A DNA stretch of 64,000 nucleotides, taken from contig JADZGC010000004.1 in NCBI GenBank assembly GCA_020854115.1, forward strand, positions 65,665 to 129,664. Direction: 5' to 3'. This stretch comes from a bacterium. GTDB lineage: Bacteria > Patescibacteriota > Saccharimonadia > CAILAD01 > GCA-016700035. Position 1 is the stretch's first letter, and every line of letters begins with the position of its first letter. Positions 3,008 through 34,068 of the stretch are shown here, one piece after another. The translations under genes were made by a program, and so were the position numbers. The notes beneath the pieces are model-generated. The model made no database searches. It was not told where the DNA came from and saw only the letters and a program-made list of their open reading frames with translations.

Positions 3008-5853
3008 AGATAGCTGTCGAAACAATCAATCGATACTTCAAGAAACCTCTATCTACAGATAGAATGGTGAGTTTAATTGAGCGCACAGAAATCGAAGTCG
3101 AAGAAATTTTGTATGCGAATAGGCTTGATCCAAAAATTATCTTAGCTAAAGTTCTGGATGTGTTTCCGCATCCTAATGCAGATCGACTACGACTAGTAGA
3201 TATAGAATATGGTGCGAAGCGACCAACGCGTGTAGTGTGCGGTGCTCCAAATGTAGCAGTCGGGCAGCGCGTAGCCTGGGTGCGACCCGGAGCTACGCTA
3301 CCGGACGGTACGCAGATTGACCAGGCAGTCATTCGCGGTGAGAAAAGCGCAGGAATGCTAGCTAGCGCCAAGGAATTAAGCATATCGGATGACCATTCTG
3401 GAATCGTCGTGCTTGATGAAGTAACCCACTCGCTTGGAACATCATTGTGCGACATTGTATTTTCGACTGACGTCCTGGATGTGAAGACGCCTGCGAACAG
3501 GTGGGATTACCTTAGCGGGGAGGGGATAGCACGTGAGCTGTCTGCATATGATCAGTCAATTCAGCTCCTTTTGCCAGAGCGAGGGGAATATACTTATCAA
3601 GACACCGATGTCGCGAAAGTCAAGGTTAGGGAAGAGAATAAGCGGTTTCTCAGTGCTCGCTTGCGATTAAAGAACGATGTCAAAACACCATCATGGCTTG
3701 TGGATAACTTGCTCGCGAACGGATTTGTGCCACATAATCCAGTCGTCGATATTACGAATTTTGTGATGCTAGAAACCGGACAGCCATCCCATGCCTATGA
3801 TGCGAATAAAGTCCGCGGTCCCCTTACTGTGCGTTTTGCAAAGAGCGGTGAAAAACTTACAACACTTGATGATGTGCATCGTACGCTCATGGATCAGGAT
3901 CTTGTGGTATGTGATGATTCAGGTCCGATCGGACTGGCTGGCGTGATTGGTGGCGCATCGACTCAAATTGACGCCACATCAACAGAAATAATTCTCGAAG
4001 CAGCGCATTGGGATAAGACTCTAGTACGCCGATCATCCATTCGACATGGTATTAGAACGGAAGCCTCGGCTCGCTTTGAGCGCAATCTCCCACTCCCCTT
4101 GCAGCCTTACGCATTTGCGCGCTTACTTGATTTGCTGATCGACATTTGTGGCGCAGAGATTATCGAAGGACCTTTTGACCAATTGCATGCCTGGCCGTGG
4201 CGACGTTTCTTGGGAGTTCGGTTGCGCCGTGCGGAACAATACTTGGGGATGCGGCTAAAGGAAGCGGAGATGGTCAGAGGTTTACGTAGACTTGGATTTG
4301 CTGCGCATCACTTTTCTCTCTCGGCCGAGCTGAAGTCACATCTTGGTAAGCCGTATAAATGGGGCGCAAATTTCCGTCAGGATGGTGAAGAAGCCTTTGA
4401 CTGCTCATACCTGGTAGATCGTTTGTATTCGAAGCTCGGTGTAGCCGTCGGACATACTGCCTTAGGTCAGCTACATCACGGTGAAGAAGTTGACTCAAAT
4501 GATGCATTAAGACCTGGTGACGTTGTGTTTTATGAGGGCAAAATTGAGAATTCTCACACCGACCACTATTACAAGACATTGCCAGATGGCTCGAAGCAGA
4601 AAGTAGTACTCAAGTCACCGGTACGTGTCGGACATAATGGTATATATCTCGGCAACAACCAGGTTATACATGCAGCCATATATAAATTTCGCAATGGGAA
4701 GTGGGTGAAGCGTCGACAGCAAGGGGTGATCATCTCTCCCCTGTCTGAGTTTGTTGATAATCCTGGCTACATCGGTGCGCGTCGCTATATTTCGAGCTTT
4801 AATCATATTATTGCGATCGAAGTCCCCTGGTGGCGAACAGACATTACATCAGAGACTGATATCTTCGAAGAAATGGCAAAGCTAGCGGGGTATGAAAAAT
4901 TGCCAGAAAGCCTACCGCAATTGCCACCTATGCCCGGCACAGCTCAGTCACAACAGGTTGAGAACATGCGGATTCGGCATGGCCTAGTACGCCAAGGTGC
5001 AATCGAGATAAATAGCTACAGCTTTATTTCCGAAGCGGATGTAAAATTGAGTCAAATACCAGAATCTCAAGTATTACGGATAGCGAATCCACGCTCTCCA
5101 GAGCAAGCGTTCGTACGTTCATCAATGCTAGCGAGTCATGCACGATTTTGGGCAAAGCAGTCGGCGCGTGCATCGTCGCTTGGCGCATTCGAGATCTCAC
5201 GTGTGTATGAGGCACAAGGGCTTGTCAAGCAGCCGAAAGAATCTTGGCGCCTGGCGATTAGTGCGCCTGGCGAGCAAGCTCTTCAAAACGTTCAAGGATT
5301 GCTCCATTCCGTGCTGTCAGATATGCGGGCTCAGGTGACGTTTCGGGCTGGTAGGCACGACGCAGACTCGATCAGAGGATTATCTGTGTATGTGCCGCAG
5401 CGCAGCGCCGGTTTGTTCGTCGGCTCGGAGTGGGCTGGTGTGATTGGCCAGCTACGCACTTCAGTACGACGAGGCTTCTCGTTGTCTGCTGATCTAGCGT
5501 ATGCAGAGGTGCTTATTGAGCTACTGGGATCAAGTCCTCGTCCGTATCCGATTAGGGCACTACCGCCCTATCAGCTCGTCACACGTGATATCTCGCTTGA
5601 GGTACCGGTGGGTGTTTGGTGGCAGGAGATTCGAGGCGCACTGCAGTCGGATAAGCATGTGTGGCAGGTGGAGTATCGAGAAAATTATTCGGATAGCATG
5701 CTACAAAAATCAGATAGACGAGTAGTGACCGTGCGACTGTGGCTAGATCTTGGTGCTCAACCAAGCCTTGATCAAATTGACAAGTCGGTGCAACGGGCGG
5801 TCAAGGGTCTTCAGATCCAGCTGAAACAAGCTGGTAAAATCAGCGTTCGATAG
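3004..5853 (+). CDS. pheT: Phenylalanyl-tRNA synthetase beta subunit, 949 aa, carrying an inserted NlpC/P60 domain
   Basis: N-terminal tRNA-binding (Myf) domain (VVCGAPNVAVGQRV...GEKSAGMLAS), B3/B4, B5 (LGVRLRRAEQYLGMRL..), C-terminal FDX-ACB region; about 150 aa longer than typical PheT. Confidence 0.95.
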   Translation: MKIAVETINRYFKKPLSTDRMVSLIERTEIEVEEILYANRLDPKIILAKVLDVFPHPNADRLRLVDIEYGAKRPTRVVCGAPNVAVGQRVAWVRPGATLPDGTQIDQAVIRGEKSAGMLASAKELSISDDHSGIVVLDEVTHSLGTSLCDIVFSTDVLDVKTPANRWDYLSGEGIARELSAYDQSIQLLLPERGEYTYQDTDVAKVKVREENKRFLSARLRLKNDVKTPSWLVDNLLANGFVPHNPVVDITNFVMLETGQPSHAYDANKVRGPLTVRFAKSGEKLTTLDDVHRTLMDQDLVVCDDSGPIGLAGVIGGASTQIDATSTEIILEAAHWDKTLVRRSSIRHGIRTEASARFERNLPLPLQPYAFARLLDLLIDICGAEIIEGPFDQLHAWPWRRFLGVRLRRAEQYLGMRLKEAEMVRGLRRLGFAAHHFSLSAELKSHLGKPYKWGANFRQDGEEAFDCSYLVDRLYSKLGVAVGHTALGQLHHGEEVDSNDALRPGDVVFYEGKIENSHTDHYYKTLPDGSKQKVVLKSPVRVGHNGIYLGNNQVIHAAIYKFRNGKWVKRRQQGVIISPLSEFVDNPGYIGARRYISSFNHIIAIEVPWWRTDITSETDIFEEMAKLAGYEKLPESLPQLPPMPGTAQSQQVENMRIRHGLVRQGAIEINSYSFISEADVKLSQIPESQVLRIANPRSPEQAFVRSSMLASHARFWAKQSARASSLGAFEISRVYEAQGLVKQPKESWRLAISAPGEQALQNVQGLLHSVLSDMRAQVTFRAGRHDADSIRGLSVYVPQRSAGLFVGSEWAGVIGQLRTSVRRGFSLSADLAYAEVLIELLGSSPRPYPIRALPPYQLVTRDISLEVPVGVWWQEIRGALQSDKHVWQVEYRENYSDSMLQKSDRRVVTVRLWLDLGAQPSLDQIDKSVQRAVKGLQIQLKQAGKISVR
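4340..4800 (+). other. NlpC/P60 papain-like cysteine hydrolase domain embedded in PheT (B5 region)
   Basis: GKPYKWGAN...FDCSYLV (Cys), RPGDVVFY, GHNGIYLGNNQVIHAA (His, His), QGVIISPLSEF...YIGARRY aligns motif-for-motif with Spr/MepS-type NlpC/P60. Confidence 0.8.
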
Positions 5854-7853: not shown

Positions 7854-10376
7854 ATGAGCGAATTTGCAAGTCTCATTCTTCTCGTCATGTTGGTTGTCAT
7901 GTTGGGTGTCGGTGGTGTTGTATTCTGGATTGTGCGCCGCCGCTTGCAGCACGCTAAGGACATCGAGCGCAGCCTTAAGATGGTGCCATTACTCCTAAAG
8001 TTACCTCCGGCCGAGGAAGATGAGAGTCAGCGTGATGAGCGTGAGAAAATCAAAGAAAATGTCTCACGTGCTGAGGGCATATACACGCTGCTTTCAGGTA
8101 TCGCCACAAATCGTCGTTGGCTGTATTCTCAGCGGCATATATCTTTTGAGATCGTGGCCCATGGCGAGCAGATCTACTTCTATGTTGCGGTGCCGGTTGC
8201 GCTTGTAACTTCTGTCGAAAAGGCTCTGGTCGCGGCCTATCCGACCATACAGATTATCCCAGCCGAGGATCACAACATCTTCTCTGAGACGGGCAAGATA
8301 GCGACTATTACAGGTGGGGAGATGCACCTGACTGGAGACTCATTTTATCCCTTGCAGACCTATAAGACGTTGGAATTCGACCCTTTAGCGGGCATGCTAT
8401 CAGCATTGACGCGCCTGAAACCTGATGAGGGTGTGGTAGTGCAAGTGATGTTTCGGCCGGCCAATCCGAAGTGGGTCATCAAGGCTCGCGAGTTCGCCAA
8501 GGGGCTCTTGAATCCGCAGCGAGCAAAAATGCATGATCCGATGCATATAGCGGCATCGGTGGCACGAGCCCCATTTGGTTCACCTGACTGGCAGGCTAAA
8601 GAACAGATGCAAGACCCATCGAAACAGGCCGATTCGATTGACCAGAAGTTGGCTCAAGCAGTTGAGGAAAAGGCGGCCCAGCCGGCCTTTGAAACGCTTA
8701 TCCGAATTGTGACGAGCTCGGATGATTTTGGTCGTAGTAAACTGCTCTTACAGGATGTCGTGAATGGCTTTGCACAGTTTGCACTACCAGGTAGTAATAG
8801 CTTTCAATTCGTCGCCGATCCATCACAGCAGCAGCTTGCGACCGACTTGATTTTTCGATTCTTCCCGGCGCAAAAAAAGAAAGTGATCCTAAATAGCTCG
8901 GAGCTCGCGACGCTATTCCATTTGCCGAGCAGTCATTCAGAGCTGGCTGCGCCACTTGAACGCAAGGGCCTTAAGGAGGTTGCTTCACCTGCGGACTTGC
9001 CGGACGCCGGGATTGTCCTGGGAAGCAACTTCTTCCAGGGCAAGGAAAAGGTCGTTCGGCTTACGGATAAGGATCGCACACGCCACATGTACATTCTTGG
9101 TCAGACCGGTACCGGTAAGTCTGTCTTGCTTGGCGATATGATTGTGCAGGATATGATGGCCGGGAAGGGCTTGTGCTTTATTGACCCGCATGGTGAGGTG
9201 GCTGAAGAAATTATTGCTAAGGTTCCGCCGCATCGAGCTGAGGATGTGATTTACTTCAATCCAGCCGATATGGCTATGCCGCTCGGAATGAATATCTTAG
9301 AAACTGATCCGGCGCATCCAGAACAAAAAGACTTTGTGATTCAAGAAACGTTGGCGATGCTCTATAAGATGTATGACCCAAATAACCAGGGTTTTATCGG
9401 CCCGCGCTTTGAGCAGTGGTATCGTAATGCGGCTCTGACGGTAATGGCTGACCCGGCTGGGGCGACCTTCCTTGAGATCCCCAAGCCGTTCTTGGACGAT
9501 GACTTTTTGAAGGCGAAATTCAAATATGTGACAGATCCGACAGTGCAAGACTTTTGGATTAATGAAATGGGTCAAACCTCTGAACGCGATAAGAGCGAGA
9601 TGCTTGGCTACTTTGTATCAAAGTGGGGCGCCTTCCAGTCAAACGAAACGATGCGCAATATTATGGGGCAGCATCAGAGTGCGTTTGATTTTGGCAAGGT
9701 GATGGATGAGGGCAAGATCCTGATTGTCAATCTCTCGAAGGGCCAAGTCGGTGAGCTGAATGCAAAATATCTTGGGATGATTTTCGTGATCAAAGTGCTT
9801 GCTGCAGCCTTCGCTCGCTCAGGCAGGCCAAAAGATCAAATGCCGCTCTTTACACTCTACGTCGATGAGTTTCAAAACTTCGCTACTGAGTCATTTGCAA
9901 CGATTCTGTCTGAAGCCCGTAAGTACAACCTGTGTCTTGTCGTGGCAAACCAGTTTATTGGTCAGTTGACCGATGAGATTAAGGGTGCGGTATTTGGCAA
10001 CGTTGGTACGCTTTTCACTTATCGCTGTGGGCCAGATGATGCTGAATATCTAGAGAAGCAGTTCCTGCCAAGCTTTGATAAGACTGACCTCGTCAATATG
10101 CCAAACCTCTTGGGTGCGGTGAAGTTGATGGCAAATGGGTTGCCGACGAAGCCTTTTACGCTCAAGCCGATCTTCCCGCCCATAGGAGGATATGGTGATG
10201 CGAATGTGGCGCTGAATGTGAAAGAGCTGTCGCGCAATAAGTATGGTCGACCAAAGGAGGAAGTAGCTAAGGAGGTAGCAGCTGCGCTGACGATGCGTGA
10301 TGAGCCAAGGCCAAGTAGTGCACCAGCTCCCGCCGAGCAAGCTTCAGTACCAGCTGGTTCTCAGTCAGCACAGTAA
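7854..10376 (+). CDS. Membrane-anchored P-loop ATPase, VirD4/TraG/TraD-like (coupling-protein / HerA-FtsK superfamily)
   Basis: N-terminal TM (LILLVMLVVMLGVGGVVFWIV); Walker A ILGQTGTGKSVLL; Walker B-like LFTLYVDEFQNF; 840 aa. Confidence 0.6.
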   Translation: MSEFASLILLVMLVVMLGVGGVVFWIVRRRLQHAKDIERSLKMVPLLLKLPPAEEDESQRDEREKIKENVSRAEGIYTLLSGIATNRRWLYSQRHISFEIVAHGEQIYFYVAVPVALVTSVEKALVAAYPTIQIIPAEDHNIFSETGKIATITGGEMHLTGDSFYPLQTYKTLEFDPLAGMLSALTRLKPDEGVVVQVMFRPANPKWVIKAREFAKGLLNPQRAKMHDPMHIAASVARAPFGSPDWQAKEQMQDPSKQADSIDQKLAQAVEEKAAQPAFETLIRIVTSSDDFGRSKLLLQDVVNGFAQFALPGSNSFQFVADPSQQQLATDLIFRFFPAQKKKVILNSSELATLFHLPSSHSELAAPLERKGLKEVASPADLPDAGIVLGSNFFQGKEKVVRLTDKDRTRHMYILGQTGTGKSVLLGDMIVQDMMAGKGLCFIDPHGEVAEEIIAKVPPHRAEDVIYFNPADMAMPLGMNILETDPAHPEQKDFVIQETLAMLYKMYDPNNQGFIGPRFEQWYRNAALTVMADPAGATFLEIPKPFLDDDFLKAKFKYVTDPTVQDFWINEMGQTSERDKSEMLGYFVSKWGAFQSNETMRNIMGQHQSAFDFGKVMDEGKILIVNLSKGQVGELNAKYLGMIFVIKVLAAAFARSGRPKDQMPLFTLYVDEFQNFATESFATILSEARKYNLCLVVANQFIGQLTDEIKGAVFGNVGTLFTYRCGPDDAEYLEKQFLPSFDKTDLVNMPNLLGAVKLMANGLPTKPFTLKPIFPPIGGYGDANVALNVKELSRNKYGRPKEEVAKEVAAALTMRDEPRPSSAPAPAEQASVPAGSQSAQ

Positions 10377-20802: not shown

Positions 20803-20929
20803 AACTTAAAAAAGTTTTAAAGTTGTTTTGTATTCGTCTAGATGACAGGATTACATGCATTTCGAGTCTTCACTGTTGGCTCGAAAGCATTCCAAGATAA
20901 CAGTGAAATGATTCTTTGAATCATTTGTG

Positions 20930-22456
<1,527 letters not shown>

Positions 22457-22976: not shown

Positions 22977-23163
22977 ATGTGCTATTGTACGGGTATTTGA
23001 GGTGTTAGTAAAAAATGGTGCCTCTTTACGCTGAGGCTCGAACCTATTTTATCTCAAAAATGTAAGTTTGTGCTAAATTGCTGCTCCGTGCGCAAATGGA
23101 AGTCCGTAGAGCCAAATGCTACCAGCCCCGCCGCCTGCGCCAGCAGAGCTGTCGCGCGCCCAG

Positions 23164-23250
23164 CCCAGCCAGACTAACTTTTTGCATTTTTTTAGATTTC
23201 CCCCGCCAAAAAATTCTTTTTAATTTAGGAAAAAGTTAGTCTGGCTGGGC
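23164..23250. repeat. Long imperfect palindrome/hairpin (20-bp arms, 46-nt spacer) formed by two copies of the ccagccagactaacttttt repeat
   Basis: cccagccagactaacttttt (23164-23183) vs aaaaagttagtctggctggg (23231-23250). Confidence 0.6.
23224..23249. repeat. Left copy of 26-bp perfect inverted repeat atttaggaaaaagttagtctggctgg
   Basis: Exact reverse complement of 25411-25436. Confidence 0.7.
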
Positions 23251-23452
23251 CGTTCGCCTGCCATAAATGGCAAGAGACGGCGGGGTTTCGTCCCTGCTGA
23301 CTTCTAATTTTACTTAAACCGAAAGTCCGTGTCGCGAACAAAAAATAAGGCCAGCGGCTACGCCGCTGACATATGCAGTTGTAGGCAATGGCTACATGCA
23401 TAAACTAGGAAAATAGCGCCGACTATAGCACTATATCTCAAAGCGAAAAACA

Positions 23453-24526
23453 CGTATAGAACTCAGGACCTTTGCAACATTTCAGCAGGCGTCAGTAACT
23501 GCAAGCCTAAGTGTACGCGCTTAGTGTTGTAGTAGTCGAGATACGTCGTAAGCTTATCTCGCTGGCACTTAAGCGACACACTCCTGTTCCAGTAGTAGCC
23601 AATACATTCGGTTTGGATGGTGCGGTTAAATCGCTTAATGTGAGCGTTGTCATTCGGTCGGTGCAGCCGACTGTGTCTAGTAGCAATGCCATGAGACCGC
23701 ATTACTTGCTCAAAATAGCGTCCGTACTCCGGCCCATTGTCAGCTTGTATCATAGTCACTCTAAAGCCCCAACTGTCTTGAGCTTCCAGTACAGCTTGAG
23801 CCGCTCGTCCCGGACTCAGCTTTGCCGCCAGGGTAACGTAAGCCATTCGGCTGAATAAGTCTATGACTGTGTAGTAGTACAGTCTCCTACCGCTACGGGG
23901 GTCAACATGGTGGATGGTATCCGTCTCAACTAATTCACCTGGTCTCACGGCATATGGACGATGAGGGTTATCTCGTTTGAGTCGTGGCTTCCTGGCACCA
24001 TCAAAGCAGTGATGACGCCGCAGAATACGACGCACACTGCTGAGGCTAAGTCTTACTCCAAGAGTGTTTGTTACGTAATACCAGACAATCTCAGCACAAC
24101 GCATTAACTTAGCCCGGGCAGCTAGAACGAGCCTGACTGTCGCCCCGGGAATAGCATTAGGACAAGTATGCGGCCTAGAGCTTAGTGTAGCGATTCGCCA
24201 GCTACAAGCAGTTAGCTTGTGAGCTAGGCTAACCGATCGGCTAGGCCGGTTAGGGTTGTCAAATTGGACATATCGGTTAAGCTTGTCCCATTTGCGTTTC
24301 CAGCGCCAGATGGTTGAGCGATGAACACCACACTTTCTTGCGACAACAGCCAGAGGTTGTTGGTCTTCGACCAGTAACCGCATAGCGGTTGCTCTGGCAC
24401 TAGGTAAGTTAGGGTTGATAGAATAAGCCATGGTAGGCTCCTTTCTTATTAGTTGTTGATACTAACAGTTTAGGACGCCTACCTTTTTTAGTTCAATTTA
24501 GGTTGCAAAGGTCTTGAGTTACTACG
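23453..24526 (-). mobile_element. IS481-family insertion sequence (1074 bp) with imperfect ~26-bp terminal IRs and perfect 6-bp target-site duplication AAAACA
   Basis: IRL cgtatagaactcaggacctttgcaac (23453-23478) vs IRR-rc cgtagtaactcaagacctttgcaac (24502-24526); flanking aaaaca at 23447-23452 and 24527-24532. Confidence 0.85.
23463..24431 (-). CDS. IS481-family DDE transposase (integrase core domain)
   Basis: 322 aa; ETDTIH, IQADNGPEY, RPNDNAHIKRFNRTIQ, N-terminal HTH (VARKCGVHRSTIWRWKRKW). Confidence 0.9.
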   Translation of the reverse strand: MAYSINPNLPSARATAMRLLVEDQQPLAVVARKCGVHRSTIWRWKRKWDKLNRYVQFDNPNRPSRSVSLAHKLTACSWRIATLSSRPHTCPNAIPGATVRLVLAARAKLMRCAEIVWYYVTNTLGVRLSLSSVRRILRRHHCFDGARKPRLKRDNPHRPYAVRPGELVETDTIHHVDPRSGRRLYYYTVIDLFSRMAYVTLAAKLSPGRAAQAVLEAQDSWGFRVTMIQADNGPEYGRYFEQVMRSHGIATRHSRLHRPNDNAHIKRFNRTIQTECIGYYWNRSVSLKCQRDKLTTYLDYYNTKRVHLGLQLLTPAEMLQRS

Positions 24527-24532
24527 AAAACA

Positions 24533-24562
24533 TTGACAAATACTATATGTTTATTATAAAAT
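24533..24562 (+). promoter_or_regulatory. Putative promoter TTGACA-N18-TAAAAT for the high-GC ORF, immediately adjacent to the IS481 duplication
   Basis: ttgaca 24533-24538 directly follows TSD 24527-24532; taaaat 24557-24562; SD aaggag 24601-24606. Confidence 0.45.
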
Positions 24563-24615
24563 ATACCGAGTGTTTCTCAATCCCGAGAGACTCGTACCTA
24601 AGGAGTGTGAGGCAG

Positions 24616-25236
24616 ATGCCCACAGGCTACACGTCCGACCTCTACGAGGGCAAGGATGTCGAGTTCTCTGATTTCGTCATGAAGTGCGCGAGGGCGTTCG
24701 GTGCTCTCGTTGAGCTCCGTGACGAGCCGCTCGACTCGCCTGTCCCGACGGAGTTCAAGCCGAGCAGCTACCACACGGAGCAGCTCGAGAAGGCCGAGGC
24801 GGACGTCGCTCGCATCAAAGCGTGGGACGACACCGAAGCTGACCGCCAGGCACAGCTCGCTTTCGAGCGCGCAACACATGAGTACCAAGAGTCGCAAGCT
24901 CGCGAGCTCGCGATGCGTGAGCGCTACGAGACAATGCTCGCCAAGGTTCAGGCTTGGACGCCGCCCACCCAGGAGCATCGCGAACTCAAGAACTTCATGG
25001 TCAAGCAACTAGAGAAGTCCATCGACTTCGACTGCAACACGACCTACCCGGAAGTTCCGGAGCGCCTCAGCGGTGCCGCCTACAAGGAGCAGCAACTCCA
25101 TTCGGCCCGTTGGCAGGTCTCGTACCACACCGAGCACGGTGAGGAAGAGATCAAGCGAGCCAAGGAGCGTACCGATTGGGTTCGGGCCTTGCGCCAGAGC
25201 CTCACGGAGTCCTCTGACACAACTGTCGAGGCCTGA
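24616..25236 (+). CDS. Hypothetical protein encoded by compositionally foreign high-GC DNA (GC3-rich), 206 aa
   Basis: ATG 24616 behind AAGGAG; codons overwhelmingly G/C-ending (gac ctc tac gag ggc aag ...); several overlapping alternative-frame ORFs on both strands typical of high-GC DNA; the 24514 upstream extension in the ORF track is AT-rich and non-coding. Confidence 0.65.
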   Translation: MPTGYTSDLYEGKDVEFSDFVMKCARAFGALVELRDEPLDSPVPTEFKPSSYHTEQLEKAEADVARIKAWDDTEADRQAQLAFERATHEYQESQARELAMRERYETMLAKVQAWTPPTQEHRELKNFMVKQLEKSIDFDCNTTYPEVPERLSGAAYKEQQLHSARWQVSYHTEHGEEEIKRAKERTDWVRALRQSLTESSDTTVEA

Positions 25237-25410
25237 GAGCACGAAACCCTGCACATGCAGGTCGGTAGGCAGAAAGTCTAGTAAGAGATCGTGGCAAAAC
25301 CACAATCACTGAACAACTTTCTACCTACCGTATAACCCGTCCATGAAGCGTAAAACAGCCATGCTGATGAGCCGTAAAGCGGCGAAACGGTTAGAAAAGT
25401 AGAATTAAAA

Positions 25411-25436
25411 CCAGCCAGACTAACTTTTTCCTAAAT
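25411..25436. repeat. Right copy of 26-bp perfect inverted repeat ccagccagactaactttttcctaaat
   Basis: Exact reverse complement of 23224-23249; lies 15 bp beyond the 3' end of tRNA-Ile. Confidence 0.7.
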
Positions 25437-25451
25437 CAAAAAGTTTCTTTA

Positions 25452-25528
25452 TGGTGGGCTTGGCAGGACTCGAACCTGCGACCTCGTCATTATCAGTGAC
25501 GCGCTCTAACCAGCTGAGCTACAAGCCC
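25452..25528 (-). tRNA. tRNA-Ile (anticodon GAU), CCA encoded
   Basis: Minus-strand cloverleaf gggcttgtagctcagctggttagagcgcgtcaCTGATAAtgacgaggtcgcaggttcgagtcctgccaagcccacca. Confidence 0.9.
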
Positions 25529-26495: not shown

Positions 26496-27374
26496 ATGGA
26501 TCCGCGTATAGCATCGGGGGATGTAATGCAGCCAGGTGGCGGGACTCCCGCCGTACAATTGAATCCAAATCCGAGTATCGGAGTGGGGGAGATTGTTCGT
26601 CCAAACCCTGAGCAGTCAGTTGCTGCCGTACAGGCGCCGGTATATCCTCAAGCGCAGGCTATGGTGGTGCCTCCTATTGCCCCCAGCCCTATGCCACCCT
26701 TACCACAAGCGGCAGCACCCCAGCCTGTGCAAAACGGAGTACCGCAAGCACCAATAATGACTGCTCCATCGCCACCTCCCCAGATGATAGTACCTCCACC
26801 GGTAGCAATGCAGGCAGCTAACCAGCCGGTACCCGCCCAGCCAATGCCGCAGCCAATAGCTCCGCAGAGCCAGCCTGCTCCCGCACAGTTTGCGCCCGCC
26901 CCGCAGCAACCAGCACCGACGGCGCTTGTGCAAGGCGCTCCAATGATGGATGCGCTTGCACCGCGCCCCGCAGCTCCCTCGGTAGCTCCGGTGGCTACTC
27001 AGCCCCCCTCGGCGCAAGCTCCAGTACCAGCTCCGGTATCCACTAGTACAGTGAAATCAAACAAGCGATCAAGCCTAGCGCTTGCCGCTCTACTTGTCGG
27101 GGCAATGTCGGTTTTGTTAGAAATCTTTATTAGTAATCAGCTGAATTACATTATCGCTGTTGCTCCTGTAAGCCTTGCTGCCATAGGGTTGGGAGTACCG
27201 GCTCTCGGGAGCCCAAGACGTGGGCTTGCAATAGCTGGCGTAGTACTCGGCTCGCTGTCATTGGTCTCGGTAATTATCCTGTTTAGTGTTAATGCGGCAA
27301 CGCAGAGTCGCTGTAGCATTAACCCGACAAGCGACCCGCAGTGCCAGGCGGTACAACCAACAGTAGGAGGATAA
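26496..27374 (+). CDS. P/A/Q-rich low-complexity protein with C-terminal TM helices (DUF4190-like architecture)
   Basis: N-terminal PAPQ-rich region; C-terminal LALAALLVGAMSVLLEIFI / IIAVAPVSLAAIGLGV / LAIAGVVLGSLSLVSVIILF. Confidence 0.5.
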   Translation: MDPRIASGDVMQPGGGTPAVQLNPNPSIGVGEIVRPNPEQSVAAVQAPVYPQAQAMVVPPIAPSPMPPLPQAAAPQPVQNGVPQAPIMTAPSPPPQMIVPPPVAMQAANQPVPAQPMPQPIAPQSQPAPAQFAPAPQQPAPTALVQGAPMMDALAPRPAAPSVAPVATQPPSAQAPVPAPVSTSTVKSNKRSSLALAALLVGAMSVLLEIFISNQLNYIIAVAPVSLAAIGLGVPALGSPRRGLAIAGVVLGSLSLVSVIILFSVNAATQSRCSINPTSDPQCQAVQPTVGG

Positions 27375-30584: not shown

Positions 30585-30596
30585 AAACGAGAAAAA

Positions 30597-33780
<3,184 letters not shown>

Positions 33781-33947
33781 TTCTTTGCGTGACATTGTGT
33801 GATGAATTCGTTCTTCATACAAGTCACAGCATGAGACGGCTAACACGCTCTTGAAGAGTGTTGTCGAAATAAGTCACGTTTGTATCTTATTCTCTATGTG
33901 TGCCAATGAGCATCGATCTGGTAGCTTTGATTTACATTGAGGAGACA

Positions 33948-34058
33948 TCGGACCGGTGCTTATAGCGAAGAGGTTCCACCGGTTCCCATCCCGAACACCG
34001 AAGTTAAGCTCTTCTGCGGCGATGATACTGCTCTGCGGGAAAGTAGCGCGGTGCCGGA
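33948..34058 (+). rRNA. rrf: 5S ribosomal RNA
   Basis: tcggaccggtgcttatagcgaagaggttccaccggttcccatcccgaacaccgaagttaag...gggaaagtagcgcggtgccgg. Confidence 0.9.
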
Positions 34059-34068
34059 TTTATCATGA

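Follow-up and report, generated by a model that had tools for sequence, protein, structure and literature searches.

Phage morons are autonomous units of promoter, gene, and terminator found in prophages. Integrative islands and islets that target tRNA genes insert at the tRNA 3' end, leaving a partial tRNA direct repeat at the distal end and an empty site in relatives. Mobile insertion cassettes (MICs), among them IS231-MIC231 and the Tn3-type MICs of Xanthomonas (PMC4337579), lack a transposase and hold passenger genes between insertion sequence (IS)-type inverted repeats. Hammerhead ribozymes are known to flank single genes in prophages, with the ardA unit of Agrobacterium tumefaciens as one case (Perreault et al. 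2011, PMC3088659). Here we describe a locus that recalls each of these, in a stretch of 64,000 nucleotides (nt) of a saccharibacterial genome (assembly GCA_020854115.1, contig JADZGC010000004.1, positions 65,665 to 129,664 of the forward strand); this whole stretch is referred to below as the window. At its center is a GC-rich open reading frame (ORF) at 24616–25236. We think it probable that this ORF is the cargo of a mobile cassette lying in an islet at tRNA-Ile, that it goes back to an old capture from a high-GC, phage-type source, that it has since circulated among ultra-small bacteria belonging to the candidate phyla radiation (CPR), and that a ribozyme forms the 3' end of its mRNA.

Like a moron, the unit consists of one accessory gene that brings along a strong promoter and a 3'-end signal and differs in composition from its surroundings, but the CPR cassette lies in a bacterial chromosome outside prophages, and its Saccharibacteria version ends in a hairpin and a ribozyme whereas the Parcubacteria version (L016 and L117; L numbers denote the loci compared) uses a terminator. 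The prophage hammerheads likewise stand beside a single phage-type accessory gene, and the role proposed for them is processing of a single-gene mRNA; our cassette differs in having a lone ribozyme of type III, placed at the 3' end, in being a stand-alone promoter-to-ribozyme unit that appears to move between CPR chromosomal sites outside prophages, and in that the same gene occurs without a ribozyme in ~90 phage and other loci. In relatives of the window the cassette resembles MICs, being a non-autonomous unit with terminal inverted repeats (TIRs) around one or more passenger genes and no transposase inside, and the same repeats carry different cargo at different sites in different genomes. 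The CPR repeats are, however, very long (105–136 nt) with tips that mimic tRNA 3' ends, the associated enzyme is a large serine recombinase and not a DDE transposase, and the window itself keeps only a tip fragment. All the signs of a tRNA-targeting islet named above are present, but this islet is tiny (2.4 kb) and encodes no integrase, and its core amounts to no more than ~5 nt (CACCA) with similarity in the T-arm besides.

A promoter-to-ribozyme cassette shared among Saccharibacteria

The cassette spans ~865 bp (24533–25397) and consists of a promoter, a conserved 5' untranslated region (UTR), a Shine–Dalgarno (SD) sequence, the ORF, a long 3' hairpin, and a type III hammerhead. Nucleotide homology to the loci of other genomes runs from the -35 box (24533) to 25389–25397, the flanks beyond it are unrelated, and the cassette is found again at unrelated chromosomal sites of other Saccharibacteria. 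The closest relatives of the ORF protein (54–78% amino acid (aa) identity) are all in other Saccharibacteria and all lie within the same promoter-to-ribozyme cassette. As part of the best overall explanation, we favor the view that the ORF is carried as cargo by a mobile expression cassette, complete in itself, that is passed around among Saccharibacteria. An earlier note on this DNA had pointed out the promoter and the AAGGAG SD, and both are there; the promoter it called native-looking belongs to the mobile cassette, however, and not to the locus.

Both untranslated regions are conserved together with the ORF. No covariation was seen in the 5' UTR hairpin among the aligned cassettes, so this hairpin is putative and the region is listed as conserved sequence. 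Downstream of the ORF, the fold of 25237–25400 gave z = -5.15, compensatory change affects 7 of the 21 pairs of the long hairpin, and the 3' part of the cassette keeps the invariant strings CTGATGAG ... CGAAAC. We found no terminator-like site 3' of the ORF, and a small ORF that overlaps the ribozyme (25344–25403) is not conserved. A pattern scan with the 5' UTR detected one further locus, L116, and none in IMG/VR, while a scan of metagenome contigs with the single protein returned nothing. On the minus strand, a near-consensus promoter (TTGAGA-16-TATAAT, 11/12) at 24553–24580 overlaps the cassette's -10 box and 5' UTR and points into the transposase gene of the adjacent IS.

Other classes of element were considered for this unit. 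An integron gene cassette was rejected because the unit has its own promoter, is solitary with no array, has no integron integrase nearby, and ends in a 3' hairpin followed by a ribozyme. A type III toxin-antitoxin system, made up of a protein and a processed RNA, was another idea that was dropped; the unit shows no repeats.

Hammerhead ribozyme

The full Rfam model Hammerhead_3 (RF00008) matches 25334–25393 with 34.9 bits (E = 5e-5). The catalytic core is complete (CUGAUGA at 25364–25370 and GAAA at 25384–25387) and invariant in all aligned cassettes, the predicted cleavage lies 3' of C25341 in a GUC triplet (25339–25341) that reads CUC in L115 and UUC in L005, and the 11-58 pair is U-A in six of six sequences. 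The three helices around the core, with helix III open and helices I and II closed by loops, comprise 15 pairs, with 97.8% of cells standard-paired over six distinct sequences. Compensatory changes were detected in 10 of these pairs and in all three stems, against 0–1 in controls with slid partners. A covariance model built from five cassettes matched directly 3' of the gene in the window and in L015, L009/L007, L011–L014, L113, L116, L119, and L115; the match in L005 is partial and weak (19.9 bits, E = 0.01).

Beside homologues in ~90 phage and other-bacterial loci, the covariance model found no credible hammerhead; the one match near such a homologue, in L108, is marginal (12.7 bits, E = 0.26) and overlaps the homologue's end. 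IMG/VR yielded no hits to two hammerhead-specific patterns. The literature searched holds no report linking hammerheads with Saccharibacteria, Patescibacteria, or CPR, so this is the first hammerhead described in CPR or Saccharibacteria as far as the searchable literature shows. We suggest that the strong promoter would drive a monocistronic RNA through the ORF, and that the hammerhead would cut after C25341 to leave an mRNA ending in the stable long hairpin and a 2',3'-cyclic phosphate. Ribozyme and hairpin together would offer a way to define and protect the mRNA 3' end that depends neither on a terminator nor on context, and such freedom from the terminators of the host would suit a cassette that lands in many places.

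Insertion at tRNA-Ile

The sister genomes (16S rRNA 92.7–93.8% identical) keep the order 16S ... tRNA-Ile(-) tRNA-Ala(-) PrsW ... 23S, and the gene is missing from all three that we compared (L121, L122, and L123), which answers the presence or absence check proposed in the earlier note. An 85-aa ORF lies 50 nt from tRNA-Ile in L121 and L122, and L123 has different content there. In the window, 2475 nt separate tRNA-Ile from this ORF, versus 50 nt in L122 (ORF 57% identical), and homology to L122 picks up again on both sides of the islet. Because the sister genomes retain synteny without the gene, one of them with an empty site, the gene is foreign to this genome.

Read along the minus strand, the window shows tRNA-Ile ...CACCA, the islet, ...GGTTCGAGCC..GCACCA, and then the old flank. 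The pattern TGGTG-N8-20-CTCGAACC has two matches in the window (at 23016 and 25452) where 0.02 were expected, and the pseudo-tRNA at 23016–23052 aligns with the outer TIR tips of L015, L009, L011, and L014. The islet would have integrated site-specifically right after the CACCA 3' end of tRNA-Ile, with the pseudo-tRNA half as its far end. No integrase is encoded in the islet: its sole enzyme is the IS transposase, and a recombinase occurs in relatives only, which suggests that the window islet may have lost its own. The repeat-bracketed setting with an IS described in the earlier note is present as a 40-nt inverted repeat (23209–23248 and 25411–25450) with the IS inside it, and related copies of the palindrome to which the left arm belongs (23156–23257) lie near the cassette in L009/L010 and L116 (Table 1).

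Table 1. Features of the islet and its cassette (window coordinates)
Feature	Position	Strand	Basis or remark
Inserted islet, ~2.44 kb	23016–25451	.	between tRNA-Ile 3' end and conserved 85-aa membrane-protein gene
Pseudo-tRNA 3' half, ...GGTTCGAGCC...GCACCA	23016–23052	-	direct repeat of tRNA-Ile 3' end
Palindromic repeat element, 28-nt arms	23156–23257	.	one arm and loop repeated inverted at 25411–25450
IS of ~1.06 kb, 322-aa DDE (rve) transposase at 23463–24431	23460–24520	-	Pfam HTH_23, rve, rve_3; 19-nt TIRs
Cassette promoter TTGACA-18-TAAAAT	24533–24562	+	11/12; -35 and -10 boxes align across the cassettes of different genomes
Conserved 5' UTR with invariant AGTGTTTCTCA box, hairpin 24572–24591, SD AAGGAG 24600–24605	24569–24615	+	invariant alignment columns
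GC-rich ORF, 206 aa, phrog_8905 member	24616–25236	+	composition, profile match, family-invariant residues
Structured 3' UTR: small hairpin 25248–25261, long hairpin 25263–25330	25248–25330	+	fold, compensatory pairs
Type III hammerhead, right end of conserved cassette	25330–25397	+	Rfam match, covariance model, covariation
Inverted partial copy of the 23156–23257 palindrome	25411–25450	.	abuts tRNA-Ile 3' end
tRNA-Ile (GAU)	25452–25528	-	3'-terminal CACCA is the integration point

The IS beside the cassette occurs once in the window and is likely IS481-like. Its TIRs lie at 23460–78 and 24502–20, so that its end falls 12 nt upstream of the cassette -35 box. This IS is polymorphic between samples: L002 carries a 577-bp internal deletion, and in L003 (1–411), the same strain in another sample, the element whose end occupies the same junction (window 24520/24521) is another IS, which encodes an IS1595-like zinc-ribbon transposase. 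The transposase genes of both elements read away from the cassette. The deletion in L002 and the different IS at the L003 junction argue that the IS is a secondary arrival, which would have landed later, just upstream of the cassette promoter, and the junction looks like an insertion hot spot. AAAACA is not read as a target duplication of the IS, given that a second, distinct IS stops at this very junction in L003.

The vehicle in relatives

More complete forms of the element were detected in other CPR genomes. In L015 the cassette lies between inverted repeats with 136-nt arms (96%) and in L009 between arms of 73 nt plus 44 nt; the two loci share a 1135-nt unit (92%), including TIRs of 126–136 nt, in unrelated flanks. 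The TIR tips in these relatives mimic tRNA 3' ends ending in CACCA. The same TIRs, 88–96% identical across genomes, hold other cargo in L011 (unit 8530–9757, with two AT-rich ORFs of 150 aa and 170 aa with transmembrane segments, GC 0.35) and in L014 (unit 3152–4681, with a 405-aa protein bearing a HExxH motif).

Comparison of L011 with L013 revealed a 3,055-bp insertion that begins precisely where the CACCA of tRNA-Leu stops. At its other end a repeat tip, ...CTCACCA, adjoins the original flank. A large serine recombinase of 546 aa is encoded within it, and the topology of the insertion is the same as that of the window islet. The same recombinase gene abuts the right repeat of the cassette in L015, and an N-terminal remnant of it adjoins the cassette in L016. 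The recombinase element (L011 6698–9757; L015 6904–7672) measures 1,832 bp and sits at CACCA ends, either of real tRNAs or of pseudo-tRNA tips, with the recombinase C-terminus reading into tRNA-Leu. Its own ends, perfect 152-nt inverted repeats whose outermost 30 nt start TTTCAGAGT..., differ from the cassette TIRs, and we found no DDE IS with TIRs matching the cassette repeats. The large serine recombinase probably mobilizes the cassettes or integrates them at tRNA-like CACCA ends.

A homologue with 46–47% aa identity in L016 (5300–6900), a metagenome-assembled genome (MAG) of Candidatus Liptonbacteria, has a separate cassette design, with a TTGACA-17-TATACT promoter, a rho-independent terminator, and no ribozyme. 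That cassette lies in 105-nt inverted repeats (95%), nested with further palindromes, between tRNA genes; part of its downstream repeat is shared by L117 and L118. Speculatively, and with the balance of probability against so broad a claim, CPR (Saccharibacteria and at least Liptonbacteria) might harbor an undescribed class of small mobile elements. These would be single-gene, ready-to-express cassettes in 100–150-nt inverted repeats with tRNA-3'-mimic tips (..GGTTC..CACCA), inserted or mobilized by a large serine recombinase, either at tRNA genes or at the pseudo-tRNA tips of one another, the Saccharibacteria version using a hammerhead to make the mRNA 3' end and the phrog_8905 cargo being a new phage-conflict enzyme of Cys/His/Asp type domesticated from a high-GC phage.

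Composition and origin of the ORF

The earlier note had singled out this ORF as compositionally foreign, and computation bears this out: its GC is 0.612 (0.64, 0.42, and 0.783 at the first, second, and third codon positions, GC1 to GC3), and its GC3 lies ~5.5 standard deviations above the window baseline of 0.497 +/- 0.052, making it the sole GC3 outlier among the 46 long ORFs of the window. The GC peak of the whole window is the 600-nt bin 24601–25200 (0.613). The long overlapping ORFs that were listed as a hallmark of high-GC DNA (24598–25008(-), 24701–25012(+), and 25009–25305(-)) are all present, and the adjoining transposase gene is balanced, with a GC3 of 0.49. A second GC-rich stretch nearby (26496–27374, GC 0.58) encodes a Pro/Ala/Gln-rich 292-aa protein, and its GC is explained by amino acid content and not by foreign codon usage (GC1 0.70, GC2 0.55, GC3 0.47).

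Elsewhere the gene matches its surroundings. On phage contigs (n = 80), gene minus context GC was -0.006 +/- 0.026 (maximum +0.047, r = 0.97), and in non-CPR bacterial genomes gene GC likewise follows context. Every CPR-type copy, by contrast, is enriched, by +0.06 to +0.27, with a GC step that coincides with the ORF borders. GC3 and context GC are 0.78 and 0.46 for the window copy, 0.94 and 0.47 for L015 (Saccharimonadaceae), 0.90 and 0.39–0.42 for L007/L009, 0.70–0.72 and 0.46–0.49 for L011–L014, 0.77 and 0.54 for L005, 0.73 and 0.43 for L119, 0.755 and 0.435 for L016 (Liptonbacteria), 0.58 and 0.36 for L117, and 0.54 and 0.40 for L111. Regressions over 81 non-CPR members place the "home" GC of the gene at 0.54–0.60 from amino acid composition and, from GC3, at 0.63 if the window copy is used and at 0.71 if the copy that has decayed least is used. 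Polarized synonymous changes at third positions ran from G or C to A or T 56 times and in reverse 0 times when one triplet was taken per terminal branch, and 104 versus 15 times over all 13 triplets; parsimony polarization is biased toward common-to-rare changes, and the asymmetry is extreme all the same. This asymmetry indicates that the GC excess is no equilibrium state but the fading trace of a past composition, with GC3 ancestrally at ~0.95 or above. Purifying selection would act on the ORF even as its GC drifts down toward that of its CPR hosts.

Pairwise synonymous divergence (dS) is 0.6–1.3 between divergent cassettes and 0.10–0.13 between the closest pairs. In a neighbor-joining (NJ) tree the Saccharibacteria copies are monophyletic, and their neighbors are other CPR copies together with three low-GC and one 58%-GC viral contig. 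Monophyly and dS values of up to 0.6–1.3 imply that the high-GC capture is old. The horizontal acquisition from a high-GC donor proposed in the earlier note therefore stands as to a foreign, high-GC source and falls as to its being recent. Most likely, a single capture took the ORF from a high-GC replicon, and since phrog_8905 is a family of phage early regions, that replicon was most likely a phage or prophage. This genome received the gene directly from another CPR bacterium, in agreement with the report that transfers into Patescibacteria have, for the most part, other Patescibacteria as their source (PMC12455944). Among plasmid records, the gene was found only in Bacillus thuringiensis.

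The protein family phrog_8905

The ORF protein matches phrog_8905, a PHROG family whose label names no function, nearly end to end (3.4e-40, residues 1–198 against profile positions 1–212 of 215). Its homologues fall into 1,395 clusters at 90% identity and include members in 47 phage records (Bacillus, Pseudomonas, Caulobacter, Streptomyces, and Sinorhizobium phages) and 114 IMG/VR contigs, with Glaciibacter, Lysinibacter, Acidimicrobiales, and Streptomyces phages among other holders. The phage copies sit amid small early or accessory genes, namely Cro/CI-type helix-turn-helix, RecT, YqaJ, NinX, dUTPase, and methyltransferase genes, whereas the CPR copies are solitary chromosomal genes; among 150 upstream neighbors in phages we found no constant partner. 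Across 88 members of 33–100% identity, 29 positions are conserved in at least 90%, and all 29 are kept in the window protein. They include the N-terminus MPTGYT, C24-A-R-A-F-G-A, R35-D36, H121, Q131, S135, D139, R181, and W188.

Ratios of nonsynonymous to synonymous divergence (dN/dS) of 0.22–0.50 among close cassette copies suggest a functional, fast-evolving gene. An AlphaFold2 model is all-helical, with a predicted local distance difference test score of 91, and a sequence-profile search of PDB returned nothing. The invariant MPTGYT N-terminus and the invariant C24, R26, R35, D36, H121, Q131, and D139 lead us to a tentative guess, to be held with considerable doubt, that the protein may be a small enzyme or ligand-binding protein in phage-host conflict (superinfection exclusion or counter-defense), perhaps acting through a site of Cys/His/Asp type. 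The proteins of L011–L014, L113, and L116 (P0026/P0019 type) depart from near-invariant sites at G4S, F28S, A30K, and D36E, and this sub-clade has the lowest GC3 (0.70–0.73) of the Saccharibacteria cassette copies. The substitutions may reflect relaxed constraint or a changed function.

Alternative explanations

Several observations weigh against the reading given above. The ORF protein has no match in Pfam, NCBIfam, PADLOC, PDB, or BFVD, and our searches gave no donor for the ORF. The NJ tree is distance-based and weak, with long branches and sparse sampling. The window islet has neither a recombinase nor a long TIR pair, only a 37-nt fragment of a TIR tip and the 40-nt inverted repeat, which is unrelated to it. 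Self-cleavage of the hammerhead is a prediction from sequence, and a ribozyme does not stop RNA polymerase, which leaves read-through into the antisense tRNA-Ile and tRNA-Ala unaccounted for. The Rfam score of the hammerhead is below the gathering score of 48.5, so that it goes unlisted at that threshold, and Rfam reports no ribozyme in L015 or L115. With the weak score of the L005 copy, these last points would fit a motif that is a chance likeness or functionless relic, in a 3' region conserved merely through the recent divergence of the cassettes. We consider this very unlikely, as neither the core CUGAUGA...GAAA nor the H17 cleavage site varies and all three stems compensate across cassettes up to ~30% diverged, with the motif constantly at the right edge of the cassette. 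A size of ~1.1 kb, one ORF of ~200 aa, and a hammerhead of type III superficially recall Obelisks and retrozymes, and the right boundary of homology is the ribozyme itself; movement through an RNA intermediate in the manner of retrozymes, viroids, or Obelisks is nevertheless hardly credible. The unit keeps its -35 and -10 boxes along with the ribozyme segment that lies 3' of the cut, both of which a processed transcript would lack, and it has one ribozyme, with none of opposite polarity. Its junctions are DNA site-specific (CACCA), TIRs and an adjacent serine recombinase accompany it, and its protein has homologues in DNA phages.

The GC excess itself admits other explanations than an old capture decaying in CPR hosts. 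An abrupt step at the ORF borders is what would result if the assembly were chimeric or if contaminating high-GC reads had been joined into a CPR contig, and we regard either as practically negligible. The DNA of this strain is present in samples SRR29708233, SRR9852169, ERZ27258528, and DRR774218. The ORF and its junctions are identical in four further independent assemblies, a recurrence that argues against an artefact, the NCBI MAG protein MCC7543223.1 is the same gene, and the ORF-limited step recurs in other species with AT-rich UTRs co-conserved with the ORF. Maintenance of a high GC3 by selection in CPR hosts, through mRNA stability against AU-directed RNases, RNA structure, or translation, is unlikely. 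In its favor, the excess is confined to the ORF in all CPR copies and in both cassette designs (the hammerhead one and the terminator one of Parcubacteria L016 and L117) and has lasted over a dS of ~1, and the ORF RNA folds better than shuffled sequences (z = -3.0, from only 20 shuffles), so some selection on RNA structure or GC is possible. Synonymous changes are nevertheless overwhelmingly GC-to-AT on every terminal branch, GC3 is graded from 0.94 to 0.54 among copies, the amino acid composition is high-GC-like too, and the family shows no GC preference in non-CPR contexts. The earlier note had instead suggested transfer from an actinobacterial host to its symbiont. Cultivated Saccharibacteria live on Actinobacteria, the genome is indeed that of a saccharibacterium (its GyrB is ~80% identical to "Candidatus Saccharibacteria" and Patescibacteria MAGs, the nearest named relatives), a GC3 of 0.78–0.94 is typical of genomes with 63–71% GC by the family regression, and Glaciibacter, Lysinibacter, Acidimicrobiales, and Streptomyces phages hold homologues. 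A recent direct transfer from such a host or its phage is improbable all the same, and the homology search went against it: the best actinobacterial and actinophage relatives reach 35–49% aa identity, against 54–78% for the Saccharibacteria copies, and do not stand beside the clade in the NJ tree, where the copy from a Glaciibacter prophage (49%) falls elsewhere. Moreover, the Saccharibacteria copies are monophyletic and have the non-coding parts of the cassette in common, dS among them reaches 0.6–1.3, and 50,697 phage records contain no nucleotide match to the least-decayed ORF.

Other features of the locus

The 16S rRNA gene (20927–22454) is unlinked from the 23S (30591–33785) and 5S (33952–34059) genes, at a distance of 8.1 kb. 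The gap contains protein-coding genes and, on the opposite strand, tRNA-Ile and tRNA-Ala, an order kept in L121 and L123. The spacer between 16S and tRNA-Ile is hypervariable (0.98, 3.0, and 4.8 kb, with differing small ORFs). The 23S match spans 3,195 nt against a model of 2,925 nt, which indicates ~270 nt or more of extra sequence, by insertion or expansion; in L123 it spans 3,249 nt. Between tRNA-Ile and tRNA-Ala, only 33 nt apart in the window, sister genomes carry a 146-aa ORF with no Pfam match (L121 3016–3456; L122 1095–1535).

Implications

The arrangement of one promoter, one ORF, a hairpin, and a ribozyme is unusually clean, and with it the purpose of bacterial hammerheads becomes directly testable. 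The ~865-bp cassette is also a possible natural portable expression module for organisms whose genetic tools barely exist. The phrog_8905 family is worth characterizing: it is widespread, it has no known fold relative, and yet CPR genomes retain it, under selection, as a lone gene with a strong promoter. What began as an oddity of codon usage can be read as a defined mobile element, and it suggests that these streamlined episymbionts trade accessory genes mostly among themselves, by way of tRNA-targeted islets, and not directly from their hosts.

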